Translations under genes and position numbers: made by a program | IMG/VR virus record: IMGVR_UViG_3300032214_000528 | Span: 32,001-96,000 of that record | Source: a virus | DNA: 64,000 bases | Strand: one strand, 5' to 3' | The notes under the pieces: generated by a model | The model's database searches: none | What the model saw: only the letters and a program-made list of their open reading frames with translations | What the model was told of the DNA's origin: nothing | In this document: in pieces, positions 32,096 to 54,185 of the stretch | Position numbering within the stretch: the first letter of the stretch is position 1 | Layout of the letters: every line of letters begins with the position of its first letter

Positions 32096-32096
32096 T
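32068..32096 (+). promoter_or_regulatory. Sigma-A/70-type promoter
   Basis: TTGCAA-17-TATAAT. Confidence 0.8.
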
Positions 32097-32125
32097 AAAA
32101 ACTACAAATGACGAAAGGGAAACAA

Positions 32126-32341: not shown

Positions 32342-32945
32342 CTGGTGCTCAAATACAATAAACATTTCCGGGGACCAAGAGACAGTAAAAAATCTCAAGG
32401 AGTTCGTTGGTCGCCCAATCAAAAGAACTATGGGAGAAACTGTTGAAGAGATTGAAAATCCAATCTTTTCTCTTTACAACATTGTCGCTCCGACAAAAGA
32501 TTCAGAGTCTCGTATGGGTGATGCTTTCAAGTCCCAAGGGGACGAGGACTGGTATCACAACCACATCAACACTTGGGGAACTAAGTGGGATGTTTGCGGT
32601 GAGGACTCATGTTGGTTCAGCGAATCTGATGGCTCACTTTCCTACACTTTTGATTCGGCTTGGTCTCCACCAGATTTAGCGATTGCTCGGCTTGCCGAAA
32701 TCTTCCCTACTCTTTTCATTGAACACAAATACAATGAGACTGGCATGGGCTTCTGGGGAATCACTACCTACAAAGACGGCGAGCAGTTCAGCGAAGATGG
32801 TGGCGAGATTGACCACGCTTGCTGGGCAGAGATGGGCGAGGAGTGTCCATGCGTTGAGGACCCGGAGGAATGTTCCTTCTACTCGGATTGTCCTAACTAC
32901 AAAGAGGACGAGGACGAGGAAGAGGAAGCGGAGGTATCGGCATGA
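32334..32945 (+). CDS. DUF1281/YubB ferredoxin-like domain protein
   Basis: MPNWCSN...WGTKWDV...FDSAWSPP. Confidence 0.85.
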   Translation: MPNWCSNTINISGDQETVKNLKEFVGRPIKRTMGETVEEIENPIFSLYNIVAPTKDSESRMGDAFKSQGDEDWYHNHINTWGTKWDVCGEDSCWFSESDGSLSYTFDSAWSPPDLAIARLAEIFPTLFIEHKYNETGMGFWGITTYKDGEQFSEDGGEIDHACWAEMGEECPCVEDPEECSFYSDCPNYKEDEDEEEEAEVSA

Positions 32946-33175
32946 CCCTATTCGTATGCCACACAGGAACGGACACTTGGTTCGCCCTATCGGATACCGC
33001 CTACATCTTTGACGACGAGGACATGAACGGGCTTGACCCAATCTATAAAGCGGAGTTGGAAGAGAGCATGGATAGCGGATACGCCAGCGAGGTCGCACAC
33101 CTAATCGGCATGGAAGTCGGCGAGGACGAACTCAGAAAAATATCCAAGATGCTGAAGAAAGCCCGGAAAAGATAA
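32942..33175 (+). CDS. Hypothetical protein
   Basis: ATGA overlap. Confidence 0.65.
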   Translation: MTLFVCHTGTDTWFALSDTAYIFDDEDMNGLDPIYKAELEESMDSGYASEVAHLIGMEVGEDELRKISKMLKKARKR

Positions 33176-33251
33176 TTAGAGGACGGCGTGCCCAGATGCA
33201 AATGTCTGGGCGTGCTACCCTAACGGAGTGGGAATACGAGAGAGGTAAAAG

Positions 33252-33539
33252 ATGCGACTGCATTATTTCGACATTGACGGGAACTACGGAAACGCCGACA
33301 AGATCACGGTGATTGGAACTGGTGCTTGGATTCGTGAGGATTTCTTGCTAGTCATGGAAGCCAAAGACGAGGAACGCTATTTAGTTGCTCGTGTGATTTC
33401 CGAGTGGGTTGAAGCTGGACGACCACAAAAAGATAAGGCTATGAATAAAGAGTTTAAGAGATATGGATTAAAACCTCATAAAGCTTTGCCAGTTTTTACC
33501 CCTGACCCTGAAATCGTAAAGGAAATAGATATTTCCTAA
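33252..33539 (+). CDS. Hypothetical protein
   Basis: YFDIDGNYG motif; GAGG RBS. Confidence 0.65.
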   Translation: MRLHYFDIDGNYGNADKITVIGTGAWIREDFLLVMEAKDEERYLVARVISEWVEAGRPQKDKAMNKEFKRYGLKPHKALPVFTPDPEIVKEIDIS

Positions 33540-33697
33540 TACGATCAAAATTTCTGCCTCTACGCTTTTATTCGTCATTTGAGCGTGGGGGCAGATTTAT
33601 TTTTACGACACGCTTAGGCTAATTTCGCCTCTATGATGTTTTCTGCTAGAGTTGCCTTATCGCACTTTGGGGGTGCGAAAATGACGAAAGGACACCC

Positions 33698-34153
33698 ATG
33701 CTAGACAAGACAAAGCAAGTGCAAGGACTCACAGTTTATGCTGAGTTCTCTAAAGAGGGATTTCGCACAGAGTTCTTTATGACTCCCGACGGATTTACTC
33801 CCGAAGGAACACCAGTTCCTGCAAAGGTTTATCGCAGAGTTCTCTCTGCTGATAAGCCAAAGAAGTTGTGGTCTGCCACGACTCTACGACCAGCCACAGA
33901 AATCGCCGAGATTGGCGTAAAGGATTTGGCTGACTCAGATAAAGAAACCTACATTGAGAAGCGCACCGAAAATCTAATGCAGATTTTTGAGGGCTTTATC
34001 TCAGGTGGTTGGACTATTGTAAATGAGCCATTTCTAATCGAAACTTCTCAGAAGGATTTGGTAGAAGTAGCAAAGGGAGAAACACCTATCAAAGTTGTTT
34101 ATCGTATCAACCAAAGCAGAAAAGCATTGGGCTTTCCTGCTGAGATTGCTTAG
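33698..34153 (+). CDS. Hypothetical protein, first gene of MoxR operon
   Basis: Promoter plus conserved leader; 151 aa. Confidence 0.75.
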   Translation: MLDKTKQVQGLTVYAEFSKEGFRTEFFMTPDGFTPEGTPVPAKVYRRVLSADKPKKLWSATTLRPATEIAEIGVKDLADSDKETYIEKRTENLMQIFEGFISGGWTIVNEPFLIETSQKDLVEVAKGETPIKVVYRINQSRKALGFPAEIA

Positions 34154-34165
34154 GGGGCAATAAAA

Positions 34166-35224
34166 ATGGATACAATTACTAAAGACAAGTTGGCTTCTAT
34201 TGGGGGCGACTTTTGGAATATCGTTTCAGAGTGCATAGCGCAAGGTGTGCATGAGGAAACTTCACTACGACTAAATGCAAAGGTATTACCTAGTGGTCGC
34301 TTTGTTGAGCGAGCAAGTGGCGCTGATAGAAAAGCGAGAGAGCGAGCAGGTGCTATGACTCCTAGTGGAGTAGATGTTGCTTCTTTCGAGGCTGATGATT
34401 TCTATGTTCGTCCTAATGGACAAAAGTATTTCACTCGTCAATGGGGAATTCATAAGGACATAGCAGTAATTCGCAAAGCAAGAGAAGCCACCTCAAAATA
34501 TAACTCAGAAGGAATTGGCGACCCACAGTTCGTCCTTCTCTATGGCGCTCCGGGAACTGGAAAAACTGCACTCATTGAGGCTTCATTTTCTGATGAAACT
34601 TTGCATACAATTATTGGAAGTGGAGATACAGAAGTATCTGACTTCTTAGGAAGTTTCGTTCAGACACCTAGTGGAAACTTTGAGTGGATTGACGGAGAAT
34701 TCGTCAAGGCAGTAGAAAATGGTGAGCCACTTCTAATCGACGAAATTGGTTTGATTGACCCTAAAGTTCTTTCATTTGCTTATGGTGCTATGGACGGACG
34801 AAAGGAATTCACAATTCCAATGAACCCTGATAGAGGCACTATCAAAATCCACCCTGACTTTTTCGTAGTGGGTGCGACTAACCCTAACGCTCCGGGAGTT
34901 CGACTTTCAGAGGCGTTGCTATCTCGTTTCGCAATTCAGGCAGAACTAACCACAGATTGGAAACTCGCTGAGAAGTTGGGCGTTCCTAAAACTATGGTGA
35001 GCGTTGCTCAAAATCTCTACAAGAGAAGTCAGGGCGATACTGCTGAAATCTCATGGTCGCCACAGATGAGAGAGTTGCTTGCTTTCCGTTCTACTGCCGA
35101 ACTATTTGGCACAGAGTTTGCGATTGCTAACTTAATCGCCAGCGCACCTGAACTCGACAGAGATGTGGTGGTTGATGTTATTGCTCGGGCGTATGGCGCT
35201 GAGCATAAGCCAGCAAAAATCTAG
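34166..35224 (+). CDS. MoxR/CbbQ/CobS-like AAA+ ATPase
   Basis: GAPGTGKT, LLIDEIG, ATNP, ALLSRF. Confidence 0.92.
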   Translation: MDTITKDKLASIGGDFWNIVSECIAQGVHEETSLRLNAKVLPSGRFVERASGADRKARERAGAMTPSGVDVASFEADDFYVRPNGQKYFTRQWGIHKDIAVIRKAREATSKYNSEGIGDPQFVLLYGAPGTGKTALIEASFSDETLHTIIGSGDTEVSDFLGSFVQTPSGNFEWIDGEFVKAVENGEPLLIDEIGLIDPKVLSFAYGAMDGRKEFTIPMNPDRGTIKIHPDFFVVGATNPNAPGVRLSEALLSRFAIQAELTTDWKLAEKLGVPKTMVSVAQNLYKRSQGDTAEISWSPQMRELLAFRSTAELFGTEFAIANLIASAPELDRDVVVDVIARAYGAEHKPAKI

Positions 35225-35366
35225 TTCCCTGCTAGATGTTGGCTAGTGGGGTGGGGGCTTCATGGGTGTAGCCCTCACCTACCACTCAGGGGTAAAAGCG
35301 AGGGAAAGCTTTGACTCCTACGATCAAAATTCGCAGGACTCACCTAGAGGCAGATAGCCCTAGATG

Positions 35367-35395
35367 TTGCAGGTAGATAGTTAAAAGTGTATGAT
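35367..35395 (+). promoter_or_regulatory. Promoter of the VWA gene
   Basis: TTGCAG-17-TATGAT. Confidence 0.75.
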
Positions 35396-35442
35396 AAACC
35401 TATCGTTGGACACACGATACAAAAGAGAAAAGGACGAACGAC

Positions 35443-37221
35443 ATGGCACACATTAAGCCACTAGAAACAAAAGGCTCAGGGGTCAAGACACCTACTGAGT
35501 GGCTACCAGTTGGCTACGAAATTGGATTGCTAGTTAATGAGTGGTCTGAGCGAAGCGACATTGTTGCTTGCATTGGCACAGACAAAGGTGAAGGCGCACC
35601 TGCTTGCTTTATCCCTTCACTCGCTGAGGTGCAGGTAAATACGATTGAGGCGTTTGGAGAAGGCATTACTCCTAATCTGATTGACGACCTTACAAAGCCA
35701 AAGAACCAGTTTGAGTTTCCAAAAGCAGTAGGTGCAATTATGCACGAAGCCTTCCACGCAAAGTTTTCTAGTTGGGATATTGCTCAGGCAGGTAAGGAAC
35801 TAAAGCAAGATGAGTTTCAGGCTTTGATGTTGCTAGAGGAAGGTCGCATTGAGGCACAGGGAATTATTGCTATGCCTAGAGCAAAGAACTTTTTGCGAGC
35901 AAGTGCTATGGGTTTAATTATTGACGAAGCAAAAGAAACTTTCGCTGATAACTCTAGCGTTGGGTCTGCTTGCCAGTTGGTGGGATTGGCTCATGCTCGT
36001 ATCGTTGCAGGGTCATTACTAGAAACAGAAGCAACAGATTTAATCAAGGCAGTAAATGATTTTCTAGGTGCTGACCTAGTTGCAAAGTTGATTGCAATTA
36101 TTGAGAAGTTCCAAAGCCACACTCGCCACTCAGATATTTCTGCTTGCTATCCATTAGCGATTGAGTGGGCTGAGTTGGTCAAGGAAGCAAAGAAGGAAAA
36201 GGGAGAACCTACTGCTGAGGAAATGCAGGAGTTCGCAAAGATGATGAGCGAACTTATGGCAGACATGGACTCAGAAGTTTCTGAAAATGTTTCAGATGAA
36301 CTATCAAAGCAACAGGACTCAGAGGCTATGAAAGAGTCTGCTGAAAAGAAGTCAATGAGTTCTAAAGAGCAAAAGAAAAATGAGGAAATCTCTCGTCAAG
36401 TATTCTCAAAGAGTTCAGGTCCCGGAGAATTCCGAACTGCCTCTAAGTTGATTGAGAAGCGAGCGCCTATTGCTTCTGAGAGAAGTGCGACAGTAAAGAT
36501 TGCTAGAGCATTGGAAAAAGCAAAGTATCGTGAGAAGGACATTACAGAAGTAGATAGCATTACACCTCCGGGGCGACTACGCACTAGAGCAATTATTCAG
36601 AGCAAGGCGCTTGCACAAAGAGGAATTCATAAGCAAGCAGAGGCTTTCCGCAAAACAGTTCGCAAGCACACAGACGAACCAACACTTTCAGTTGGAGTCA
36701 TGGTTGATATTTCAGGGTCAATGTCGAGTGCTATGCAACCAATGGCTTCTACTGCATGGATTATGTCTGAGGCAGTTCGTAGAGTTCAGGGTCAATGCGC
36801 TATGGTTTATTACGGCTCAGATGTTTTCCCAACACTCAAAGCAGGTCAGCGACTAAAAGATGTTTCAGTTTATTCTGCACCTGACGGAACAGAAAAGTTC
36901 GACCGAGCATTTCGTGCATTGGACGGCTCACTCAACCTTCTCAATGGAACTGGCGCTCGTTTGCTAGTAGTTGTGTCGGACGGACATTACACAAGTGAGG
37001 AAACCGAAATGGCTCAGCGTTGGCTAAAGGCTTGCACCCGAAATGGCGTTGCAGTTCTATGGCTTCCGATTGGCGACAATGGACGGCAAGCAGAGGAAAT
37101 CTGCAAAGGGGCGAACGCTCAGGTCGTGGCAGGGATTACCAGCCCAACCGAGTCGGCATTAGCGATTGGTCGCACCGCAGAGCGAGTCCTCTCAACCGCA
37201 GGGCAAAGGCAGGTCGCTTGA
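35443..37221 (+). CDS. CobT-like protein: N-terminal HExxH metallopeptidase-like domain plus C-terminal VWA
   Basis: HEAFH, LEEGRIE; VDISGSM MIDAS, VVVSDG. Confidence 0.85.
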   Translation: MAHIKPLETKGSGVKTPTEWLPVGYEIGLLVNEWSERSDIVACIGTDKGEGAPACFIPSLAEVQVNTIEAFGEGITPNLIDDLTKPKNQFEFPKAVGAIMHEAFHAKFSSWDIAQAGKELKQDEFQALMLLEEGRIEAQGIIAMPRAKNFLRASAMGLIIDEAKETFADNSSVGSACQLVGLAHARIVAGSLLETEATDLIKAVNDFLGADLVAKLIAIIEKFQSHTRHSDISACYPLAIEWAELVKEAKKEKGEPTAEEMQEFAKMMSELMADMDSEVSENVSDELSKQQDSEAMKESAEKKSMSSKEQKKNEEISRQVFSKSSGPGEFRTASKLIEKRAPIASERSATVKIARALEKAKYREKDITEVDSITPPGRLRTRAIIQSKALAQRGIHKQAEAFRKTVRKHTDEPTLSVGVMVDISGSMSSAMQPMASTAWIMSEAVRRVQGQCAMVYYGSDVFPTLKAGQRLKDVSVYSAPDGTEKFDRAFRALDGSLNLLNGTGARLLVVVSDGHYTSEETEMAQRWLKACTRNGVAVLWLPIGDNGRQAEEICKGANAQVVAGITSPTESALAIGRTAERVLSTAGQRQVA

Positions 37222-37287
37222 CCTAAGATAGGTTTTCTAGTCGGGTATCGTCCTTTTCAGCGTGTGTCCCCCCGATTAGGAAAAGAG

Positions 37288-37314
37288 AAGCCTCACCTAA
37301 TCGGTGGGGCTTTT
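37288..37314 (+). terminator. Intrinsic terminator
   Basis: AAGCCTCACC-TAATC-GGTGGGGCTT-TT. Confidence 0.75.
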
Positions 37315-37514
37315 CGCTTGTGGGGGTAAATTTTGATCGTAGAAGCTTTACGGCAAGTAGAGTTTTTACTTCCCGATAGCGCTTTTAATTTATTTAATTT
37401 TTGAGCGTGAGGTGCAGGAGCGGAGATAGGAAAAAATAATTCATTTTGATACTGGGTTTATTTGGATAGGTATGATAGGGTTGGGGCATAACAAGAAAAG
37501 GGAAAGGGAAAGAA

Positions 37515-37706
37515 ATGCAGATAAGAATTTTTCACGGCTTGACTTGTGAGGATTGCGATACGCAGAACTCTCTAGTCATAGACACAGGCTCGGATTGGAT
37601 AGATTGGGTTTGCCTTGATTGCCGAAACGAGTCGCACGAACTAATCCACCCTGACGACAGGGACGACATAGATTTGACCAAATTGGTCTATTCGATAGAG
37701 GGGTAA
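37515..37706 (+). CDS. Small Zn-ribbon protein
   Basis: CEDC...CLDC. Confidence 0.65.
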   Translation: MQIRIFHGLTCEDCDTQNSLVIDTGSDWIDWVCLDCRNESHELIHPDDRDDIDLTKLVYSIEG

Positions 37707-37708
37707 AA

Positions 37709-37936
37709 ATGGCGGAGATACATTATCTGATTGCATACAACACGGAAACAAAAAAGTGGGTTGCAGCGGACGAGGCTTTAGGTTCTTGGTTTAGGAACGG
37801 CCCGGTCTGGGAAGGTTCTCACGAGGACGGCAAGTGGAGATTTCTTAACTATGATGATGCTATTGAAATGGACACGGAATACGAAGCCAGCGAAACTGTC
37901 GGCAAGATACTCAAGCAACTAAATGGCGAGGGGTAA
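37709..37936 (+). CDS. Hypothetical protein
   Basis: 75 aa after AGGGGTAAAA. Confidence 0.7.
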   Translation: MAEIHYLIAYNTETKKWVAADEALGSWFRNGPVWEGSHEDGKWRFLNYDDAIEMDTEYEASETVGKILKQLNGEG

Positions 37937-37939
37937 AAA

Positions 37940-38395
37940 GTGGAAGCGGGTCTTTATGACTACTCCATTACTTATCACGGCATGAAACCGCATGATCAGC
38001 GTAGAGAGAGCGTGTTCTTTACTAACGGATTGGTTGCCACAGTAGAGATAGACGGATACGCCATAGACATTTACGCTGAGGGAAACACTCGCCTGAACTA
38101 CGCTAACGGAGATGACATTAGGATTTTTAGCACACCTGATGATTTTATTTATGGCGACTTGGAAACGGACGCAAAGCTTCAAGAGATACAAGATGACGAG
38201 GACTACTACTGGGTCAATAACAACTGGTTCGACCTCTACATAAAGGGAGAGCATTTAGATCAAGTTACCCACACCATTGACGAAGCCATTGAAAGTGCGA
38301 AGGCGATTGTCGCTGAACACATAGTCAATGTTTGCTTCATTGAAAATAACACGAAACCTATTTTGCATAAGGACGGGATTTTTGTAGAGGTATGA
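37940..38395 (+). CDS. Hypothetical acidic protein
   Basis: 151 aa, WVNNNWF. Confidence 0.7.
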   Translation: MEAGLYDYSITYHGMKPHDQRRESVFFTNGLVATVEIDGYAIDIYAEGNTRLNYANGDDIRIFSTPDDFIYGDLETDAKLQEIQDDEDYYWVNNNWFDLYIKGEHLDQVTHTIDEAIESAKAIVAEHIVNVCFIENNTKPILHKDGIFVEV

Positions 38396-38435
38396 TAGGA
38401 TAGGGTTGTAAGCAAATGACGAAGGGAAAATAAAA

Positions 38436-38927
38436 GTGCATTGTGTTCAGTTATTGTTTGTTGAGGCTGATACTCATCAAGACGCTATCGAGATAGTTGA
38501 TAGCAGACGAGAGGAAGCAGATTGGTCTGATTGGTCTGAGGTTGGTGGGCGTTGGTCAGGGATTTTTGGAGAAGGCGAACCAAACGCAATTCTTTATTCC
38601 AATGACCCTGAGAAGTGGGACAAGATGATAAAAGAGTTTTCTGATTACAGAGTGGCTCACATGAAGGAGTCATTGGCTGAAGTAGAAAAATCAGGTGAGA
38701 GTGTTGCTGAACTAATCAAGCACTACGACCCATTAGCCAATAACTTTGACTTGGGTATGAAGGGTTATTACTTGCGAAGGATTGGTTCACTACTTGCCGA
38801 TTACTGGACAAGCGATAGTGCGGTCTATGACTTAGAGGCTGGCACATCTAACTTGGCTTACTTGGCAGAGCGAACTGCAACAAACCCGAAAAAACAATTT
38901 ATGGTTGCGGTGGATTTCCACCACTAA
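38436..38927 (+). CDS. Conserved phage hypothetical protein
   Basis: MH...WSDWSEVGGRWSG...VAVDFHH pattern. Confidence 0.75.
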   Translation: MHCVQLLFVEADTHQDAIEIVDSRREEADWSDWSEVGGRWSGIFGEGEPNAILYSNDPEKWDKMIKEFSDYRVAHMKESLAEVEKSGESVAELIKHYDPLANNFDLGMKGYYLRRIGSLLADYWTSDSAVYDLEAGTSNLAYLAERTATNPKKQFMVAVDFHH

Positions 38928-38967
38928 AAATGTTATGATAGTTATCCAAATGACGAAGGGAAAGTAA

Positions 38968-39228
38968 ATGGAAAACGAAAGCGAGTTTATTACGGCTGGC
39001 GGTCTTGCCGAGTATCTCTCACAAGAGTATAAGGAAAGCGAGATTGTTTCCTACAATGTATACGGCAAGTCTGATGTTGAGTCCGACTTGGGTTGTGAGA
39101 TTACGGATGAACAATGGAAAGAGTTTATTCGGGAGTGGGAAAATGATGATGTTCTCAATGAAATTCGTGCCCAAAGTTGGATGTTGCTAATAGATAATCT
39201 TCGTCAAGAACTGGGGATTGACGAGTGA
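38968..39228 (+). CDS. Hypothetical protein
   Basis: Conserved leader. Confidence 0.7.
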   Translation: MENESEFITAGGLAEYLSQEYKESEIVSYNVYGKSDVESDLGCEITDEQWKEFIREWENDDVLNEIRAQSWMLLIDNLRQELGIDE

Positions 39229-39323
39229 GCCTTTGTGAGATTTGCGAGGCAAACGAAAAAGAGTATGCCGAAGGCAAGTGGTGCGCTTCGTGTAAAGATG
39301 ATTTCAAGGAGAGTGATGACTAA
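39225..39323 (+). CDS. CxxC microprotein (32 aa, not in ORF track)
   Basis: MSLCEICE...WCASC; GTGA/TAATG coupling on both sides. Confidence 0.6.
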   Translation: MSLCEICEANEKEYAEGKWCASCKDDFKESDD

Positions 39324-39499
39324 TGAGGCTTTGTAAGTTTTGTGGCTACGGCATACGGCTAGACAAGGCTGGCTGGTGGGTAGACCTAACGGGTGGAGAT
39401 GTGTGCGGTTGGGACGGCACGAACTCAGCTCACGAACCTAGACTTACTAGGCGAGATACGGCAGGGGTAAAAACGGATCAACGGAAGGAAGTGGCGTGA
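39323..39499 (+). CDS. Small hypothetical protein (58 aa, not in ORF track)
   Basis: MRLCKFCG...C...H; coupled on both sides. Confidence 0.55.
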   Translation: MRLCKFCGYGIRLDKAGWWVDLTGGDVCGWDGTNSAHEPRLTRRDTAGVKTDQRKEVA

Positions 39500-39732
39500 G
39501 AGTAAAAGATTTGATTGAGCAGTTGAGAGCCTATGACGGAGAGGACGAGTTGATTGTCTGCTACTGGGACAAAGAAACGGTGCATGGATACGGCTCGCCT
39601 GAAGTAACGGACGAGGAGTGGAGTGAGGTCATCGAAAGGTATAACAACGGTGAGTGGCATTTCCAAAGCTCGGCTGCCGAGGATTTTGTAGAGATAGTGC
39701 AAGAAGTGGTTTCCGAACGAATTACCGAGTAA
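39496..39732 (+). CDS. Hypothetical protein
   Basis: MRVKDLIEQL. Confidence 0.7.
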   Translation: MRVKDLIEQLRAYDGEDELIVCYWDKETVHGYGSPEVTDEEWSEVIERYNNGEWHFQSSAAEDFVEIVQEVVSERITE

Positions 39733-39790
39733 ATTATAAAAGGTATGATAGGCTTGCCTAGCAATACCAAATGACGAAAGGAACAGGGAA

Positions 39791-39934
39791 ATGGAAAAGA
39801 CAGTATGGGAGTCCTCAGTTACTGAGGAAATGATTTTTGACGCAGGTTTATCAAAGGCTGATGTAAAGCGTCTAGTAAAAGAGTTAGATGACGCAGTTAT
39901 GGAAATCTGCCAAAACTCAGGGATTGGGGGGTAA
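39791..39934 (+). CDS. Small hypothetical protein (47 aa, not in ORF track)
   Basis: Promoter, conserved leader, MEKTVWESSV. Confidence 0.65.
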   Translation: MEKTVWESSVTEEMIFDAGLSKADVKRLVKELDDAVMEICQNSGIGG

Positions 39935-39936
39935 AA

Positions 39937-40122
39937 ATGTTTTTCAATGGTTTCACTTTACTGATGATGATTATTGGGGCCGGGATCGGTTTTAGTTTTT
40001 CCCGTTGGGCTATCTCTACTCCATACCTAGTAGAAGCCCTATCTCAAAGAGTGGGATACGACTACGACAACGAGGGTCAGGTAATTATTTATACTGGACT
40101 CTACGCTGAGGCTGAAAAATAA
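39937..40122 (+). CDS. Small membrane protein
   Basis: N-terminal TM. Confidence 0.55.
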   Translation: MFFNGFTLLMMIIGAGIGFSFSRWAISTPYLVEALSQRVGYDYDNEGQVIIYTGLYAEAEK

Positions 40123-40236
40123 TTTGACGACACGCTCACCACGATTTGCACAAAGGTTATGATGAGTGTATTGTTCTACTTGTTCGGGTAAATCGCTCGG
40201 ACTTACAAAATGACTAAGAGAAAAAGGAAACGCCAA

Positions 40237-40626
40237 ATGGCTAACACCGAAGTATCATACGAAGTAGTGCAGGTAAAGGCTACAACAACAACAACAAAGA
40301 AAGCAGTAGTTTTAGATGAAACTAATGCGCTCGCACTAATCGCTAAAAAGAAACTAATCTCAGAAGCGATTGCAACACAAACTGCCGAGTTGGAAAAAAT
40401 CAAGGCAGAGATTTACGCCCTAATGGGTTGGGAAAAAGTCAAGGTCAATAAGAAAGATAAGTGGGTTGGCGAAGCAGAGGTTGGGCTTATCGCTGGCGAG
40501 GAACGAGTCAAGATTGACCTAAGGGAACGCACCGATTTTGACGGAGATGTTTTGTTCAATGACTACCGAGAGATTTACGACTTGGTGGCAAAGAAGTCAG
40601 AGTATCCCGTCCTAACCGCAAAGTAA
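40237..40626 (+). CDS. Hypothetical protein
   Basis: Own promoter (TTGCAC-17-TATTGT, 40146-40174) and terminator; start MANTEV. Confidence 0.75.
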   Translation: MANTEVSYEVVQVKATTTTTKKAVVLDETNALALIAKKKLISEAIATQTAELEKIKAEIYALMGWEKVKVNKKDKWVGEAEVGLIAGEERVKIDLRERTDFDGDVLFNDYREIYDLVAKKSEYPVLTAK

Positions 40627-40648
40627 TCTCCCTATTACTTAGCAAGAG

Positions 40649-40679
40649 AAAAGCCCTCACCGAAAGGTGGGGGTTTTTT
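40649..40679 (+). terminator. Intrinsic terminator
   Basis: GCCCTCACC-GAAA-GGTGGGGGT-TTTTT. Confidence 0.85.
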
Positions 40680-40821
40680 CTTTTGTGGCGAGGGGTAAAA
40701 AGCGAACGGCCGGGGATCAAGCTGGAGGGCCCGGAAAAAAGAATACGAGGTTCAAGAGCCCTAAATGCAGAAAGGTATGATAGGATTACCTTGTTCAGAC
40801 AAACTAGGGAAAGGCAAGACA

Positions 40822-41208
40822 ATGGACATAATGGAAAAGCACACGGTTGAATTGACTAGCGATTGCACTTGCACCAATGAGGACGGCACGCCTAGCACCG
40901 ATTGTTTTGATTGCTGGGACGACTCGGTATGGTTGTTCAAGGACTTGATGAACACTTGGCGTAAGACGGTCGGAGTAAATTGGAACACGGTTAGAATTAC
41001 TGGCCGGGGTATGGGTTGGCAACGCACTAGCGGAGAAGCCGTAGTGTCTTTCGATAAAGTGTTGGACGCACTAAAGATAAACGGGGACTTTACTTTACGG
41101 TTCAAGCAAGAGGGCTTAGTCCTTACGGCAACACGGTCAAGCCACGATGAGCCTACGGGTGCAGGGTTTTCTTTCACCCTTATCAAAGATGAAGAGGGAG
41201 AGGGGTAA
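40822..41208 (+). CDS. Hypothetical protein
   Basis: Start MDIMEK after GAAAGG; C..CFDCW, W.RTSG, SHDEPTG. Confidence 0.7.
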   Translation: MDIMEKHTVELTSDCTCTNEDGTPSTDCFDCWDDSVWLFKDLMNTWRKTVGVNWNTVRITGRGMGWQRTSGEAVVSFDKVLDALKINGDFTLRFKQEGLVLTATRSSHDEPTGAGFSFTLIKDEEGEG

Positions 41209-41211
41209 AAA

Positions 41212-41355
41212 GTGGGGAAAGATTATCTATCTATACTTATGGAGTGGAAGCCCGAGGGGGACTTTACCGAAGCTGATCTCTGGGACGCTATCGCTGAAGC
41301 CGAAGGCGTAGATGTAAGCGAGATAAGTGATAGGGACTTGACCGAGTTTATCTAG
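41212..41355 (+). CDS. Small acidic protein (not in ORF track)
   Basis: ...MEWKPEGDFTEADLWDAIAEAEGVDVSEI. Confidence 0.55.
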   Translation: MGKDYLSILMEWKPEGDFTEADLWDAIAEAEGVDVSEISDRDLTEFI

Positions 41356-41399
41356 CGGTTCGATTGTGAAAGTGCAGAAAGGTATGATAGGATAAAGGT

Positions 41400-41480
41400 A
41401 TCTCGGTGGGGGGAAGTCGCTGGTCACCTGAACGACCTGAAACCTAGGGGGTCGGAAACAATACGACTCCCCACCGAGTC
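41400..41480 (+). ncRNA. Candidate structured 5' leader/ncRNA
   Basis: Follows TTGTGA-18-TAGGAT; CTCGGTGGGG pairs with CCCCACCGAG and encloses AGTCG/CGACT and CGACC/GGTCG helices. Confidence 0.45.
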
Positions 41481-41502
41481 TATAACTAGGGAGAGGTAAA
41501 AA

Positions 41503-41622
41503 ATGAAAATAACGGACGATTATGATTACGCTAAAGATGTATGGCTAATAAAATGCGTAGAGTGTGGCGTAAGTATGAGCCGTGAAGCATACGCTTACGG
41601 ACACGATTGCGAGGTGGCGTAA
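41503..41622 (+). CDS. CxxC microprotein (39 aa, not in ORF track)
   Basis: MKITDDYDYAKDVWLIKCVECG...HDC. Confidence 0.6.
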   Translation: MKITDDYDYAKDVWLIKCVECGVSMSREAYAYGHDCEVA

Positions 41623-41888
41623 TGGGTATGAGAGGTGAGGTAGGTCGGTTTGATTTACAACAAGAAAAGATAACCGAGCTTAGATTGGCTAAGGCTAGAT
41701 TAGAGGATGCTCAAAAAGTTTTTTGGGAGTGTTTGCTAGGTTCTAGTAAAGCAGGAGTAACACACAGAGAGATTGCGGAAGCTACTGGATTTAGTCGTGC
41801 CAATGTAATGTATCACTTAAGAAAGATACAAGATAATAATCCTTTCTTTATAGGAGATGCCAATGCGAATAGGGGTAAAAAGAAATGA
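41622..41888 (+). CDS. Helix-turn-helix DNA-binding protein
   Basis: GVTHREIAEATGFSRANVMYHL. Confidence 0.8.
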   Translation: MGMRGEVGRFDLQQEKITELRLAKARLEDAQKVFWECLLGSSKAGVTHREIAEATGFSRANVMYHLRKIQDNNPFFIGDANANRGKKK

Positions 41889-42211
41889 ACGATCAAGACT
41901 CGATAAGCTGGGGAGAGCTGGCGGAATTGACTCACGCTACGCAGGTGGAACGATTTGGTTTTTGTATGTGTGAGGACAATGAAGGGAACGAAAACCCTTA
42001 TGCCGATTGTAATAAATACTACTCAACCGATTTATCTATCTCTATTGTGGAGATAAAGGCAGATAGCAAAGAACAAGCTGAAGCGATTATGCAAGAGTTT
42101 ATAGACAAGATTGCACCGATTATGGACGACAAGATTAGGTGGGACGAAGCTAACTGGGAGATTGAGGAAAGTGTCCTAGATAAGAAAGCTGGGGAGTGGA
42201 TAACAAACTAA
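41885..42211 (+). CDS. Hypothetical protein
   Basis: ISWGELAELTHATQVERFGFCMCED..PYADC. Confidence 0.65.
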   Translation: MNDQDSISWGELAELTHATQVERFGFCMCEDNEGNENPYADCNKYYSTDLSISIVEIKADSKEQAEAIMQEFIDKIAPIMDDKIRWDEANWEIEESVLDKKAGEWITN

Positions 42212-42311
42212 GACTCACCGAGGCTTGATTTGAAAATGTCAGGATAATCAAATACAATAAAGCTACTCGGTTACAGTAGCCGATTAACTAGGGAAAGAGT
42301 CAAATAAATAA

Positions 42312-42404
42312 ATGAGAACACTCCAAGAAAAACTAGATGCCGTGGCAAAAGATTTAGATGTTGTTATGGCTGATTTGTTAGATGAGCTTGGTCTAAATGA
42401 CTAA
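42312..42404 (+). CDS. Microprotein (30 aa, not in ORF track)
   Basis: MRTLQEKLDAVAKDLDVVMADLLDELGLND; sole ORF between a promoter (TTGAAA-17-TACAAT, 42230) and a terminator. Confidence 0.65.
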   Translation: MRTLQEKLDAVAKDLDVVMADLLDELGLND

Positions 42405-42416
42405 GTAGTCAGAGAG

Positions 42417-42450
42417 AAGCCCCCGCTAAAAGGCGGGGGTTTCTTTCTTT
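42417..42450 (+). terminator. Intrinsic terminator
   Basis: GCCCCCGC-TAAAAG-GCGGGGGT-TTCTTTCTTT. Confidence 0.85.
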
Positions 42451-42490
42451 ATAGGATAAACTTATAGGGGTAAAAAGAAAGGGAAAAGTT

Positions 42491-42796
42491 ATGGATCAGA
42501 TTATGGATACACGAACCGTTATGTTTATTGGAGATTATTTTTCAATGATGGTTACGGTAGGCGTTCCCGAAGAAGCGGTAAAAGAGGGCGAGATCTATGA
42601 AGATGCCTGTCTTAGAGTAGCTGGGACTTTAATGAAAGAACACTACGGCTGGGATGTTGTTGCCGTAAGTAATCACATAGGGGTTTTAGATGAGGGAGAC
42701 CCTAACTGCGAAACTTGTTATGGGGCTGGAAAGATGAAAGCCGAGGTAGCTGGTGTGGCAAGAGATGTAGAGTGCCCCGATTGTTTTAATGGTTAG
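42491..42796 (+). CDS. Hypothetical protein with C-terminal DnaJ-like CxxCxGxG
   Basis: CETCYGAG...CPDC. Confidence 0.65.
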   Translation: MDQIMDTRTVMFIGDYFSMMVTVGVPEEAVKEGEIYEDACLRVAGTLMKEHYGWDVVAVSNHIGVLDEGDPNCETCYGAGKMKAEVAGVARDVECPDCFNG

Positions 42797-42831
42797 GGGT
42801 AAAAAGTAGACTTACCGATTATGATAAGATT

Positions 42832-42940
42832 AGGTCACCGGGTCGAGCGAACTTCCCTTTCTGCTCCCCGTTGAGATAAGCACTTGTGCTTATCGCACCG
42901 CCCCTTGCTCTCCCTAGCAGGGGTGCGGTGTGTCTAATTG
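42832..42940 (+). ncRNA. Candidate three-hairpin sRNA with C-rich loops
   Basis: After TATGAT/TAAGAT -10; hairpins 42839-42870 (loop CTTCCCT), 42875-42894 and 42894-42932 (loop CTCCCT); no + strand ORF. Confidence 0.55.
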
Positions 42941-42994
42941 TAATTATTATAGAGATTAGATAAGCTAGATCTAAATCGACAAGAGGGGTAAAAA

Positions 42995-43252
42995 ATGACA
43001 AACAACACAATTCAACTCACCGAGTATTTAAATAAAGAGTGGGGACAATTAATAGGGGCAAAACTTTTAAGTATTAGAAGCGCTACCGAAGATGAAGCAG
43101 ATGAGATGATGGGCTGGGACTTTAGCAACCATCACGCTGTGCCGATTTTAGAGTTTGACAATGGGCTAAGCCTAATTCTTTCTCAAGATGAAGAAGGTAA
43201 TGGCGCAGGGTTTGCGTTTCTAGTTGAGGAAAGTCAGGAAGGTGTGTTATAG
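42995..43252 (+). CDS. Hypothetical protein
   Basis: LILSQDEEGNGAGF motif. Confidence 0.75.
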   Translation: MTNNTIQLTEYLNKEWGQLIGAKLLSIRSATEDEADEMMGWDFSNHHAVPILEFDNGLSLILSQDEEGNGAGFAFLVEESQEGVL

Positions 43253-43275
43253 TTATCCTACTCGCAGGGAGCGAG
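43224..43275 (+). promoter_or_regulatory. Promoter plus 5' AGGGA hairpin
   Basis: TTGAGG-18-TATAGT; CTCGC-AGGGA-GCGAG. Confidence 0.7.
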
Positions 43276-43290
43276 AGAAAAAGAGGGAAA

Positions 43291-43626
43291 ATGAAAACAG
43301 CCGTGAAAGTTACAACAGAGGGAACAGTCTCTGTGATTGACCTACAAGCAGACAGCAACGAGTTGGGAACTTTACAGAGTGCCGTTGGTGGTTTGATTGA
43401 GGTAGCAACTCTACAAAGTGGATACACAATGTTTATGAACGAAGAAGGAAAAATCCACGAACTTCCAATCAACGAGAAAGCCACCGCAATTTGGTTGGCT
43501 AACTTCCCTAACTTCCCTGATGTAATCTTGGGAGATGTTGTTCTAGCAGGAGCAACAGACGAAGAAGGAGAACAACTAGGGCTAGACCCCGACTACGCAC
43601 AACGCTTGGTCGAACTTCTAGCATAA
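43291..43626 (+). CDS. DUF3846-like protein
   Basis: LQSAVGGLIE, MNEEGK..LPINEKAT, ILGDVVLAG. Confidence 0.85.
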   Translation: MKTAVKVTTEGTVSVIDLQADSNELGTLQSAVGGLIEVATLQSGYTMFMNEEGKIHELPINEKATAIWLANFPNFPDVILGDVVLAGATDEEGEQLGLDPDYAQRLVELLA

Positions 43627-43637
43627 AAGTAGTAGAG

Positions 43638-43665
43638 GAACCCCTGCCGAGAGGTGGGGGTTTTT
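43638..43665 (+). terminator. Intrinsic terminator
   Basis: AACCCCTGCC-GAGA-GGTGGGGGTT-TTT. Confidence 0.85.
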
Positions 43666-43718
43666 CTATTGTATAGGGGTAAAAATCAGGGTTCACCGAT
43701 CAAGGTATCTTTAGAGGT

Positions 43719-43961
43719 ATGCAAATAGTTCAGAAGGTTTATCACCCTAACGGGAGTTCAGCTCCGTTTGTTGTGGCAATAGTTGATGACCCTGCCGAGG
43801 CAGATACTAAATTAGTTATTATGTTTGAAGAACCCGAGTGCACTGCGGTTTTCTCTTTAGATGGTCTTATTCAAGATGAAGACATTTCAGAGAAAAACTC
43901 TAGTCACGCCGAGCGTTATGAATACGCTTTGCGTGATGAGCTGTGGGATAATCGTTACTAG
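43719..43961 (+). CDS. Hypothetical protein
   Basis: YHPNGSSAPFVVAIVDD. Confidence 0.7.
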   Translation: MQIVQKVYHPNGSSAPFVVAIVDDPAEADTKLVIMFEEPECTAVFSLDGLIQDEDISEKNSSHAERYEYALRDELWDNRY

Positions 43962-43973
43962 GGGTAAAAAACT

Positions 43974-44543
43974 ATGACAACAATAGCGAGTGTTCAAGGT
44001 GATGGCTGGGCTGTTGTTGGTTATGACTCAAGAGTTACCGAGGAAGATGGCAGAACTTATACCTTGCCGAAAGAAGCAGGAAAAGTTTTTAAGAGTGGTA
44101 ATTACATAATTGGTGTTGCGGGAGATGTTAGAGCAATCAATTTAATGACTCACGTTTTTAAGGCACCGCCTTGCACAGGATCAACTTTAGGGGTAAAACT
44201 AGATAAGTTTATGACTGCGGTCTTTATCCCGGAACTAAAGAAATGTTTTGAGGAAGCCTCTTACTCAAAAGATGGCGACCAAGAAAGTCAGATTATGATT
44301 TTAATAAATGGAACTATCTACGAGATAGGCGAAGATTATTCTTGGTGCCACGACATTGCGGGTATCTATGCTATTGGTTCAGGTGCCGACTTTGCTTTAG
44401 GTGCGCTCAATGCTTTATCAGAGGGCAAGAACAGAACTCTTACTACTGCAAGAGCAACGATCAAAACTGCGCTCGCCGTCTCAGCTAAGTTCGATAATAA
44501 GACTTCCGAACCTTTTTACCTCTTGACTCAATACCGAGACTAG
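43974..44543 (+). CDS. Proteasome beta/HslV-like Ntn-hydrolase peptidase, copy 2
   Basis: M-T1TIA, D17-S-R19, GKV, AIGSG. Confidence 0.85.
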   Translation: MTTIASVQGDGWAVVGYDSRVTEEDGRTYTLPKEAGKVFKSGNYIIGVAGDVRAINLMTHVFKAPPCTGSTLGVKLDKFMTAVFIPELKKCFEEASYSKDGDQESQIMILINGTIYEIGEDYSWCHDIAGIYAIGSGADFALGALNALSEGKNRTLTTARATIKTALAVSAKFDNKTSEPFYLLTQYRD

Positions 44544-44647
44544 CAATCCCCACAAACTGCGCCATTGGTGTAGTGGTCTTGATTGATTTGGAACTTCTGC
44601 CCACACTTCCAACAGTTGATGTAAATCATTACTGCTTTTCTAGCCAT
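44540..44647 (-). CDS. CxxC microprotein (35 aa, not in ORF track)
   Basis: MARKAVMIYINCWKCG...VCGDC; own promoter (TATGAT at 44684-44679) and AAAGGGAG RBS. Confidence 0.7.
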   Translation of the reverse strand: MARKAVMIYINCWKCGQKFQINQDHYTNGAVCGDC

Positions 44648-44721
44648 TATGTTTCTCCCTTGTTTGGCTTGTAGGATTATCATAACAGATTTTCCTGACA
44701 AACTCTAAGACACGCCGAGAG

Positions 44722-44750
44722 TTGCAAAGTGCAGGAAGGTCTGTTATTAT
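44722..44750 (+). promoter_or_regulatory. Promoter with conserved spacer
   Basis: TTGCAA-AGTGCAGGAAGGTCTGT-TATTAT. Confidence 0.8.
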
Positions 44751-44776
44751 TTTCTTATAGGGAAAGGAAAACAAAA

Positions 44777-44983
44777 ATGTGGGGATTACCTGATAGCGCA
44801 ATCTTGGGAACTATCAAAAGCCTAAAGAGTCATAAGGGCGGAAGAAAAAGTAGTGCCGTATCAAAGCCAAGCAGAGAGATAACTCTTGCTCAATCTTGGG
44901 AGTGTTTTGACCAAGACTCTAGAAGCCTAGAGGAACTACTTGCTATGGCTCGCCTAACTATAAAGAAGCAACACGCCGAATAA
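44777..44983 (+). CDS. Hypothetical protein with LAQxWxxFDQDSRSLEELL motif
   Basis: Paralog motif of 5276-5467. Confidence 0.7.
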   Translation: MWGLPDSAILGTIKSLKSHKGGRKSSAVSKPSREITLAQSWECFDQDSRSLEELLAMARLTIKKQHAE

Positions 44984-44992
44984 GCAGGGAAG

Positions 44993-45045
44993 TTGCAAAG
45001 TGCAGGAAGGTCGTGTAGTATTTACTTATTGGCTAAGGGAGCCAA
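44993..45045 (+). promoter_or_regulatory. Promoter plus 5' AGGGA hairpin
   Basis: TTGCAA-AGTGCAGGAAGGTCGTG-TAGTAT; TTGGC-TAAGGGA-GCCAA. Confidence 0.8.
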
Positions 45046-45061
45046 AGAAAGCAGGGAGAAA

Positions 45062-45217
45062 ATGAAAACACAAGCAAAGTTTATTCGTCGCAGAATTGCC
45101 GTTGGAGTTATTGCGCTCGCCCTTATCGCTTGGGCGTTTGACGCTACAACACCTGAAATGTGCAAAGTTCCAACAGAGCAGATGAACCAATTCTGCCTAG
45201 ACCTGTTGTATCCATAA
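45062..45217 (+). CDS. Small membrane protein
   Basis: MKTQAKFIRRRIAVG.. TM. Confidence 0.65.
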   Translation: MKTQAKFIRRRIAVGVIALALIAWAFDATTPEMCKVPTEQMNQFCLDLLYP

Positions 45218-45229
45218 GGGGGAGAGCAA

Positions 45230-45466
45230 ATGCCTAGACTTAGAAAACCTCAACCGATTTTGTTAAATGATGATGAACTCTATGCGCTTATGCTAGCCAC
45301 ATTTAAACACCCTAAAGTTCCTAAATGGAAGCCAACAGGTTATGAACTAGGGCTACTAAAAGACGCTTACGAAAAAATTGCTACAGAGTATTACGCTCGA
45401 GCCGAAGAACAACAACGCATTGACGAGGAACTACGACTAATAAGAGCAGAATACGAGGGGGTTTAA
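45230..45466 (+). CDS. Hypothetical protein
   Basis: 78 aa with RBS. Confidence 0.6.
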   Translation: MPRLRKPQPILLNDDELYALMLATFKHPKVPKWKPTGYELGLLKDAYEKIATEYYARAEEQQRIDEELRLIRAEYEGV

Positions 45467-45468
45467 GT

Positions 45469-45675
45469 ATGAGCGAAGAAGGTTCAGAGTCATACAACAA
45501 AGCAAAACAAAGATGGGGTAAGGGAGAAGAACTTACAGACCAAGAGTTCGCCTGTCTTTTAATGAGGTCTTGCGGAGTCTCTAATTTAGTTGGGGCTTTA
45601 GGTTATGGACACGCTAACGAGTGCGGTTTTTGTGATGGGTCTAAACAAGTAGACCCTAGAAGTTATAGGGGGTAA
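45469..45675 (+). CDS. Hypothetical protein
   Basis: 68 aa, CGFC. Confidence 0.55.
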   Translation: MSEEGSESYNKAKQRWGKGEELTDQEFACLLMRSCGVSNLVGALGYGHANECGFCDGSKQVDPRSYRG

Positions 45676-45679
45676 AAAG

Positions 45680-45871
45680 ATGATGTTTGATCTTGGCTTT
45701 GGGCTACCGACTTATTTAGCTCATCTAACTATTGGGGTTGGTCGCTACACCCTTTGGCTCAACATTGTGGCTACTAACTGGAGAACCTTTCACTTTGGCA
45801 AAAGGTGGGGCGACTGGGTTGGTTGTTTCTCTGTCTTTACTTTTGCTTACACTATAAAAGAGAGGGGGTAA
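45680..45871 (+). CDS. Hypothetical aromatic-rich protein
   Basis: 63 aa between two AGGGGGTAAAAA motifs. Confidence 0.5.
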   Translation: MMFDLGFGLPTYLAHLTIGVGRYTLWLNIVATNWRTFHFGKRWGDWVGCFSVFTFAYTIKERG

Positions 45872-45873
45872 AA

Positions 45874-48533: not shown

Positions 48534-48587
48534 TGGTTCTCCCTGAACCATTGATAAAACTATAAACCTTCTTCCTGACATTTGCAA
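48534..48587 (-). promoter_or_regulatory. Promoter plus 5' AGGGA hairpin
   Basis: TTGCAA-ATGTCAGGAAGAAGGTT-TATAGT; TGGTTC-AGGGA-GAACCA. Confidence 0.8.
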
Positions 48588-48646
48588 GAGACACGCCCAA
48601 CAAAAAACCCCCCGATTTCTCGAGGGGTTCTTCGGGGAGTTGGTCA

Positions 48647-48935: not shown

Positions 48936-48990
48936 CGGTTCTCCCTGAACCGTTAGGAAAAGAATACATGACCTTCCTGACATTTGTCAA
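48936..48990 (-). promoter_or_regulatory. Promoter plus 5' AGGGA hairpin
   Basis: TTGACA-AATGTCAGGAAGGTCATG-TATTCT; CGGTTC-AGGGA-GAACCG. Confidence 0.85.
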
Positions 48991-49023
48991 GATAAGATCA
49001 AAAAGCTTTTACGGCGTGTCGGG

Positions 49024-49344: not shown

Positions 49345-49364
49345 TTGTTTCTCCCTTTGTTTGT

Positions 49365-49420
49365 ATTGGAACTCCCTGCTCCAATAAGATAAAGATACAT
49401 GACCTTCCTGCACTTTGCAA
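49365..49420 (-). promoter_or_regulatory. Promoter plus 5' AGGGA hairpin
   Basis: TTGCAA-AGTGCAGGAAGGTCATG-TATCTT; ATTGGAGC-AGGGA-GTTCCAAT. Confidence 0.85.
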
Positions 49421-49434
49421 GTTATAATAGGCAG

Positions 49435-53215: not shown

Positions 53216-54185
53216 CGCAAAAGCCCCTAAGAAAGATCAAATCAAAGGTTCTAAGAAAAACGCTAAAGGATCTGCATCAGGTTCTCGTAAAGTAGTTTTT
53301 TCTAAAGCAGTTGAAAAATCTCTTGCAGATAAAGTAGCAACTCACAACGAGAAAGCTAGAGAAGGCCGTCGTGCAACTCTAGGAATGCTCAAGGCTGTCT
53401 ATCGCCGTGGTGCAGGTGCTTACAGCACTTCACATCGTCCCGGTATGACTCGCAACCAATGGGCTATGGCTCGTGTTAATGCATTTTTGAAGATGCTCAA
53501 GTCTGGTAAGCCAGCGAACTCAGCTTACAAGTCAGATAATGACTTGCTCCCAGCAAAGCATCCTCGTTCAACAAAGAAGAACAACTCAATCACTGCTTCG
53601 GCTGGATTAGTTCCAGAAGAATCAGACCTAGCTAATGCTCTCATTGAGATCGCTGAGAAGTATGGAAAGTTCAACGAAGATGCAACAGGAATTTGGGCAG
53701 GATACACCCCAGCCGCAGAAAATAAATACAAAGGAATCGGAGTCAAGTGCTCTAGCTGTGTTCTATACATGGGTAACGGCTCGTGCAGAATCATCGAAAC
53801 AGAAGTCGAAGACGAAGGTAAGTGTCGTTTCGCGGTTATCCCAGATGGGGTCGTTGATGTCGGAGTTCTCGAAGGCGAAAAACTCGGAAACGAAATCCAA
53901 TCCTTAGAAGAGCTTGCACAGATTGCTGAAGAATATAGATTTGAACAAGAGTTGGCAGTAGAGATACTTCCTGAAGAAGAATACGACTCACCAGAACACG
54001 CTATTCTTTCTTTAGCAGAGTTTTCAGGGTTTGGTTATGAAGCAGAGCATGCAGTTCGTGCATCTTGGCTTCGTGGAGTTCGCAGCGGTGACGATCCATT
54101 CAAAAGAGCATCTAATTTTGCAATACTAGGTTATGAAAGCTTAGATTCAGATTTGTTACCTAAAAAGGGAGAAGATAATGTCTAA
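53208..54185 (+). CDS. Head-associated protein with conserved AVYRRG/QWAMARVNAF domain and a four-Cys motif
   Basis: TLGMLKAVYRRGAGAYSTSHRPG..QWAMARVNAFL..DLLPAKHPRST; CSSC-x8-C-x13-C. Confidence 0.7.
   Translation: MSDAKAPKKDQIKGSKKNAKGSASGSRKVVFSKAVEKSLADKVATHNEKAREGRRATLGMLKAVYRRGAGAYSTSHRPGMTRNQWAMARVNAFLKMLKSGKPANSAYKSDNDLLPAKHPRSTKKNNSITASAGLVPEESDLANALIEIAEKYGKFNEDATGIWAGYTPAAENKYKGIGVKCSSCVLYMGNGSCRIIETEVEDEGKCRFAVIPDGVVDVGVLEGEKLGNEIQSLEELAQIAEEYRFEQELAVEILPEEEYDSPEHAILSLAEFSGFGYEAEHAVRASWLRGVRSGDDPFKRASNFAILGYESLDSDLLPKKGEDNV

Follow-up and report, generated by a model that had tools for sequence, protein, structure and literature searches.

Between the stop codon of an open reading frame (ORF) of 101 aa and the ATG of one of 85 aa, at 42995, lies a gap of 198 bp (42797-42994) that holds no ORF on the + strand; around the RNA element within it there is no conserved ORF. 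The + strand of 42832-42945 folds into three hairpins in series (HP1, HP2 and HP3, Table 1; paired span 42835-42931) with an MFE of -50.2 kcal/mol, compared with -30.6 +/- 3.3 in dinucleotide shuffles (z -5.95; 0/200). The fold of the minus strand is weaker (MFE -45.1, z -4.5). An earlier note, made from the letters of this DNA, had described the gap as ORF-free and had placed in it three consecutive hairpins followed by an A/U-rich tail. The gap is as described, and the same fold and z value return the hairpins at the same coordinates. The tail is indeed A/U-rich; taken as a U-tract it fails, since HP3 went unflagged in the terminator scan, and the U-tract of an intrinsic terminator does not follow HP3 in the family described below. 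ARAGORN, run on the window (the whole 64-kb stretch of DNA that was analysed), found only a tRNA-Arg at 27470 and gave the RNA no tRNA-like or tmRNA identity.

The window comprises bases 32001-96000 of an IMG/VR record of 135,031 bp that has direct terminal repeats. Three WhiB genes and one gene for an HslV-like peptidase are present in the genome. Its portal protein shares 70% identity with that of Actinomycetia phage DSL-LC01, assembled from a lake metagenome (PMC10611076), and 48-62% with the portal proteins of large Microbacterium and Arthrobacter phages. The public runs listed as containing the sequence are freshwater metagenomes; all 20 are registered as DNA (marked 'DNA?'), and no RNA run is among them. 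The three WhiB genes, the kinship of the portal protein and the freshwater metagenomes identify the host as an actinobacterium; a G+C content of 43% points to a low-GC freshwater lineage of that phylum. The phage is lytic, with a genome of 135 kb, and the RNA gene lies inside its early-gene cluster. Beyond the portal gene, an ORF of about 4200 aa occupies 54178-64000 of the window and continues past its end.

Table 1. Features at and around the RNA element (positions in the window)
Feature	Position	Strand	Remark
101-aa upstream neighbour	42491-42796	+	C-terminal CxxC...CxxC zinc ribbon
RBS of upstream neighbour, AGAAAGGGAA	42476-42485	+	10-nt complement of the HP1 loop
Extended -10, TGATAAGAT (TGn + TAAGAT)	42822-42830	+	TAAGAT 42825-42830, TG 42822-23
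HP1	42839-42870, extendable to 42835-42874	+	loop CUUCCCU 42852-42858
HP1 outer stem, CGGG/CCCG	42839-42842 with 42867-42870	+	compensatory changes in all three aligned pairs
Junction UUGAG	42871-42875	+	single-stranded; last G doubles as first base of HP2
HP2	42875-42894	+	8-bp stem, loop CUUG; compensatory changes in seven of seven aligned stem pairs
HP3	42895-42931	+	15-bp stem, one bulge, loop CUCCCU 42910-42915, conserved closing G·U pair
A/U-rich tail, GUCUAAUUGUAAUU	42932-42945	+	no canonical U-tract
Promoter-like TTGTAA-17-TAAGCT for next gene (ATG 42995)	42938-42966	+	read from sequence
TTTAGA-18-TATAAT	42975-42946	-	opposing promoter
Leader hairpin CTCGC-AGGGA-GCGAG, then RBS AGAGGGAA	43261-43275	+	candidate partner of UCCCU loops
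Leader hairpins, AGGGA loop	44750-44770, 45029-45045	+	hairpin survey
Leader hairpins, AGGGA loop	48534-48550, 48936-48952, 49364-49386	-	hairpin survey
Promoter-hairpin units (three of six)	43224-43275, 44722-44770, 44990-45045	+	
Promoter-hairpin units (three of six)	48534-48590, 48936-48992, 49364-49425	-	

A family of structured phage RNAs

Viral contigs encode 27 close relatives of the upstream protein, a profile search finds 102 relatives, and nearly all of them are followed, directly 3' of the gene and on the same strand, by a homologous three-hairpin element. A covariance model built from 11 sequences (A1/R1) matches the element in 51 of 59 distant loci and a second model, R2, recovers most of the rest; in about 57 of the 59 the RNA still follows the gene. 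Relatives with protein identity as low as 37% have the RNA. Each of the 19 RNA-bearing records that were searched whole with R1 or R2 holds a single significant copy (G009 being marginal, with E 0.045), and the searches found no second copy in the phage genome. In G006, a 136-kb relative, the model also gives a weak second match (C1:106710-106790, E about 0.01) at 2 kb upstream of the main one, which could be a decayed paralogue or simply chance.

The covariance-model search in related phages that the earlier note had proposed as a check thus yields a family, and covariation backs its structure. In alignment A3 (45 distinct members) 95.5% of cells pair, compared with 45-56% when the partners are slid; 19 of the 21 pairs have changed on both sides (for HP3, compensatory changes are seen in 9 of 11 aligned pairs), and none of 500 shuffles attains these values. 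MAFFT followed by RNAalifold arrives independently at the same helices. The G·U pair at the end of the HP3 helix is kept in 38 of 40 members; its conservation, together with the frequency of other G·U pairs, implies that the structure forms on the + strand only, which is the strand that the earlier note had favoured by the same argument and to which the weaker fold of the minus strand also points. Members differ in length by non-multiples of three bases, and the element is therefore non-coding. This is a genuine, widespread and hitherto undescribed family of structured, non-coding, phage-encoded RNAs on the + strand; the RNA of this phage would be ~95-110 nt long.

Across the family the most invariant nucleotides are the CC ahead of HP1, the G-UGAG junction, C-GC where HP2 meets HP3, the GGG of the HP3 3' strand and the final U. 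The loops are less conserved in sequence than the G-UGAG junction, that CC and the base of HP3, a distribution that suggests a fold or protein contact beyond plain antisense pairing.

Rfam 15 returns no match to the RNA at gathering thresholds and none at E <= 10. Among GenBank phages nothing matches the nucleotide sequence of 42300-43700, and tblastn with the upstream protein is likewise without a match. The RNA is absent from the named or cultured relatives DSL-LC01, Pumpernickel and Mimi; with R2, Arthrobacter phage Mimi and Microbacterium phage Pumpernickel gave nothing significant (best E 0.19). A scan of viral contigs with the pattern GCTCCCYGWTGAG-N-CGCAY produced mostly chance matches and one new member.

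Two other architectures were considered and rejected. A four-way junction would require a closing helix, P0, that pairs in only 51% of cells. The idea of a hammerhead ribozyme came from CUGAUGAG...GUC in some members. A hammerhead joins three helices, one of them open, through CUGAUGA and GAAA cores and cleaves after GUH; at the core positions the window has GUUGAG and CGCAC, the GAAA element is missing, all three helices are closed hairpins in series, the poorly paired P0 is no real closing helix, and the Rfam hammerhead models give no match.

Promoter and flanking signals

The extended -10 element would place the start of the RNA around 42835-42838. The -10 candidates that had been picked out by eye are present, and TAAGAT aligns with the conserved -10 of the relatives: counted from the first paired base of HP1, 42 of the 45 members have a TAnnnT box 7-9 nt upstream, and such a box is almost absent from the rest of the 40 nt before HP1. 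Members of the close clade have TGn in front of the box, and the TGn-extended -10 is the promoter type usual in Actinobacteria. In three members (L015, L016 and L025) an extra gene with a canonical U-tract terminator has been inserted before promoter and RNA; since that terminator precedes its promoter, the RNA unit is autonomous of upstream transcription.

One box of the type (A)GGGGTAAAA(A) lies, family-wide and without exception, 6-24 nt upstream of the -10 box of the RNA. About 20 copies of (A)GGGGTAAAA(A) occur on the + strand of the window, in the early region only (28068-45873; for example at 42796, 42985 and 43961). Most are placed 0-6 nt before an ATG or GTG and so amount to a strong RBS plus spacer; the copies at 35289, 40692, 42796 and 43676 come after terminators and have no start codon.

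Where the promoter-like sequence of the next gene stands in the window, relatives carry TTGMAA-ATGTCAG-N10-TAGAAT; possession of its own putative promoter argues that the downstream gene is independent of the promoter of the RNA. On the opposite strand, the earlier note had read a promoter facing the RNA and had suggested that it could make an antisense antagonist. The promoter sequence is there, and it is kept only where the upstream protein is at least 85% identical, the stretch holding a + strand promoter elsewhere; the antagonist role finds no support beyond these close relatives.

Loops, ribosome-binding sites and leader hairpins

The loops of the family consist of 46% C, 35% U, 13% A and 6% G (81% C+U). 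YCCY is found in at least one loop of 44 of the 45 members, CCC in 39 of 45, and GGG never. HP1 loops are typically UUCCCUU or AUCCCCUU, and the typical HP3 loop is CUCCCUA, its YCCCU being the best-kept loop motif of the three. HP2 has no C-rich loop in this clade, and in other clades has UACCCU, CUACCU or ACCCCUU; HP1 likewise lacks a C-rich loop in several distant clades, and some distant members have runs of 4-6 C in their loops. The loops resemble the 3' tail of 16S rRNA, CACCUCCUUUCU. Hairpins of 7 bp with UCCCU or CUCCCU loops also stand at the 3' ends of genes at 35219-35237 and 40621-40640 (+ strand), so that such hairpins also occur outside the small RNA.

In this phage TTCCCTTTCT (42853-42862) exactly complements AGAAAGGGAA, the RBS of the upstream gene, and GAAAGGGAA recurs at the RBSs at 31790, 32113 and 37502, the HP1 loop being an exact 9-10-nt complement of all four; HP3 offers a 10-nt complement to the RBSs at 41486 and 45220. 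The complementarity of the loops to neighbouring early-gene Shine-Dalgarno (SD) sequences and to AGGGA leader loops, on which the earlier note had built its case, is therefore real. RBSs of the AAGGAG type dominate overall; the early region around the RNA (genome 59.6-81.5 kb) uses another dialect, consisting of GAAAGGGAA (often within AAUGACGAA(A)GGGAA), AAGGGAGAAA, and AGGGGUAAAAA-AUG. GGG-containing RBSs make up 24 of 47 in the early region vs 19 of 100 elsewhere (p 1.6e-4), and AGGGA RBSs 12 of 47 vs 6 of 100 (p 0.002). Leaders of the form AAUGACGAA(A)GG(G)A(A) stand directly before start codons at 30805-30825, 31782-31802, 32105-32126, 33678-33698, 38415-38436 and 38947-38968; the ACGACGAAAGGA leader is also found in distant relatives and in DSL-LC01, which suggests that it is a conserved short 5' UTR of another promoter class.

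The predicted duplex of the HP1 loop with GAAAGGGAA-type RBSs is worth -14 to -15 kcal/mol, that of the 16S tail about -9. HP1 is beaten by 5 of 300 of its own permutations on early RBSs and by 100 of 300 on other RBSs; the 16S tail does equally well on this permutation test, and much of the loop-RBS signal is accordingly generic anti-SD character. By its displayed, SD-complementary loops the RNA would fall into the functional class of C-rich-loop anti-SD sRNAs, an assignment to be read with the fact that C-rich loops match any SD sequence to some degree. Close relatives with the same loop have lost the exact 10-nt match to the upstream-gene RBS, the HP1 loop shows no covariation with the RBS of the syntenic upstream gene, and the search for a specific conserved target found none.

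A co-evolution test was applied to the repertoire as a whole: in 17 family genomes, the terminal loops of the RNA were compared with the RBSs of same-strand genes within 10 kb (gene calls being heuristic), the mean duplex energies of all loop-set x RBS-set combinations forming a matrix from which row and column effects were removed. Own loops fit the RBSs of own neighbours best (trace -6.18, a value that 2-9 of 20,000 permutations attain, the 17 genomes being non-independent), and the diagonal of the cross-matrix is negative in 12 of the 17, with small effect sizes of about 0.4 kcal/mol. The signal survives removal of the first multiplicative component (45 of 20,000), and three one-per-clade subsets give p 0.0006-0.035. 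The length of the loop C-run correlates with that of the RBS G-run (rho 0.46-0.48, p about 0.05), and neither correlates with GC content; G-runs in 'GnTAAAA' boxes bear no clean relation to HP2 C-runs in the 3-kb loci. The test lends modest and indirect support to loop-RBS pairing. With RBS enrichment near the RNA and a loop-RBS fit across 17 genomes, the anti-SD reading is plausible and modestly supported.

Six leaders of this phage begin with an AGGGA-loop hairpin that comes 5-8 nt after a shared promoter, TTGCAA-AGTSCAGGAAGGTC-TAnnnT, and before an AGGGA-type RBS. The extended consensus of the six promoters, TTGCAA-A(G/T)GT(C/G)CAGGAAGGTC(A/G)TG-TAnnnT, suggests that the genes form a co-regulated class and that the spacer may hold a site for a regulator. 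The earlier note had proposed that the C-rich loops kiss these leader loops. Their complementarity stands; as a core function of the family, kissing does not. Only one leader hairpin (45029) is kept, with compensatory stem changes, in a 134-kb relative at 70% identity, and leader hairpins are far less widely kept than the RNA, so that AGGGA kissing cannot be what the family as a whole is for.

Candidate functions and known counterparts

The RNA is probably a regulator of translation, and the best explanation, to which we give about half of our belief, is that its C/U-rich loops pair with the G-rich RBSs of the phage's own early mRNAs. Transcription would run rightward inside the early-gene cluster from the extended -10 promoter that belongs to the RNA, and the three consecutive hairpins would expose C/U-rich loops (UUCCCU, CUCCCU) for pairing with early-mRNA RBSs of the GAAAGGGAA, AAGGGAG and AGGGG types and, in this phage, possibly also with 5' leader hairpins through their AGGGA loops. 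The RNA would thereby become a competitor of the 16S anti-Shine-Dalgarno sequence, and translation of the early set would be tuned or shut off with no chaperone involved, as happens with the 6C sRNA of the host phylum. We infer from sequence that the RNA is transcribed, where it begins and ends, that it pairs in vivo and which way its effect goes. The trans-acting anti-SD switch of the earlier note survives in part: a non-coding RNA with its own promoter, matching loops and modest co-evolution speak for it, and the missing conserved specific target and the demotion of kissing speak against it. A bolder version, which we hold tentatively and with rather more doubt than belief, is that this freshwater-actinophage lineage runs a private translation code, a GGG-type dialect of early RBSs with a co-evolving RNA that bears up to three imitations of the anti-SD tail; the RNA would be a timed, chaperone-free master switch that silences early genes and perhaps host messages, possibly descended from an ancient capture and remodelling of host 6C.

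Protein binding at the conserved junction is the main rival, and the cis-acting leader comes next. The notion that the RNA binds protein (as scaffold, sponge or RNP partner, through the junction and HP3 base or through the C-rich loops) is attractive in that the G-UGAG junction, the CC and the G·U-closed base of HP3 outrank any loop in conservation and that gene and RNA keep their order over deep divergence; we nevertheless think it unlikely to be the explanation. Candidates for the partner would be the product of the always-adjacent small gene and a host factor that recognises the pyrimidine-rich 3' tail of 16S. The zinc ribbon of the neighbour bears, in the close clade, a sub-threshold likeness to Anti-TRAP and DnaJ CxxC domains, but it is missing in distant relatives that keep the RNA, and the neighbour has no recognisable RNA-binding fold: the 101-aa protein matches no Pfam or PHROG family above threshold, and its predicted fold (pLDDT 81) has no PDB match at E <= 0.001. 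Nor does protein binding alone predict the fit between loops and RBSs.

The two remaining readings keep the element in cis. As a 5' leader it would be read through, from the promoter of the RNA, into the downstream genes as far as the conserved one for the HslV-like protease, its hairpins affecting either polymerase or message by put-like antitermination, by stabilisation or by processing. A canonical terminator stands after HP3 (by 24 nt) in only 4 of the 45 members, all of one clade; this clade counts against a leader, and the absence of a canonical terminator from the other 41 counts in favour; terminators lie further downstream, and the HslV-like gene follows the RNA at 0.3-1 kb throughout the family. 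However, clades differ in the gene that comes directly after the RNA, a point against a dedicated 5' leader, and between the two stands a conserved promoter separate from that of the RNA. Repeated conserved loop motifs are, to our knowledge, no feature of put-type elements, and we judge the leader improbable. Very improbable indeed is an element that merely ends the upstream gene, HP3 with or without HP2 serving as a U-tract-less terminator or 3' UTR stabiliser with no function in trans. 'I-shaped' terminators, which have no U-tract, have been described for Actinobacteria; HP3, a hairpin that is long and rich in G+C, comes straight after a gene, and the gene-end hairpins with UCCCU loops noted above show the same placement. 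Yet these phages otherwise use U-tract terminators (15 found vs 5 expected), a conserved -10 box separates the stop codon from HP1, the canonical terminator in L015, L016 and L025 already precedes the unit, and three hairpins with conserved loops and junction exceed what a terminator needs.

Regulatory RNAs of lytic phages are barely known, and we know of none described for phages of the abundant freshwater Actinobacteria. The family is well supported, is absent from Rfam and is present in roughly 60 uncultured phage contigs, and pairing of its loops with early RBSs would be a concrete mechanism with a defined candidate target set; if the proposal is true, these phages time the translation of their own early genes by an RNA that competes with the anti-SD of the ribosome. 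The highly conserved G-UGAG junction suggests, at the same time, that there is more to the fold than the display of loops.

Among known RNAs, hairpins 7, 13 and 14 of Staphylococcus aureus RNAIII and RsaE/RoxS pair with Shine-Dalgarno regions through UCCC-type loop motifs, and RNAIII also makes loop-loop contacts with target hairpins. The phage RNA shares with them the possession of several UCCC-type loops, and the loop-loop contacts of RNAIII are a model for those that might be made with AGGGA leader loops. These RNAs belong to Bacillota, however, and have no sequence or covariance-model similarity to the RNA described here, which is encoded by a phage and probably targets early genes of that same phage; the analogy with RNAIII and RsaE/RoxS is purely functional.

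The published RNA that comes nearest is the 6C sRNA of Actinobacteria (RF01066; M. tuberculosis B11/6C), which binds many mRNAs via C-rich loops and G-C pairing without Hfq or ProQ (PMC6486639). The phage RNA is not a member of that family. The 6C model gives no match in 42700-43050 at E <= 10, in the whole window at E <= 1, or in ten further family members at E <= 2, and the best-scoring member of the family, the high-GC L324, reaches 37.5 bits with a gathering threshold of 47 bits; with the window RNA and the ten members scoring nothing and L324 below threshold, membership in RF01066 does not hold. In place of the two adjacent hairpins with loops of about six C that characterise 6C, HP2 has CUUG and HP3 has CUCCCU. 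In a distant relative, IMGVR_UViG_3300028025_003950 (L316:299-370), a second RNA precedes the family RNA by about 1.4 kb; it has two hairpins with CCCCC loops, reaches 42.8 bits with the 6C model (threshold 47 bits) and may be a phage-borne 6C-like RNA; no counterpart of it was found in the 64-kb window. The loops of the phage RNA hold 3 C and those of 6C six or more; the phage RNA has an extra 5' hairpin and the conserved G-UGAG junction, and it resides in a lytic phage whereas 6C is chromosomal. What the two have in common is the phylum of the host and an architecture of adjacent, linker-less, G+C-rich hairpins with C-rich loops, HP2 and HP3 corresponding to the two hairpins of 6C. This likeness may reflect distant relationship or convergence; if the proposed pairing is true, the chaperone-free mechanism of the 6C type extends from host chromosomes to viruses.
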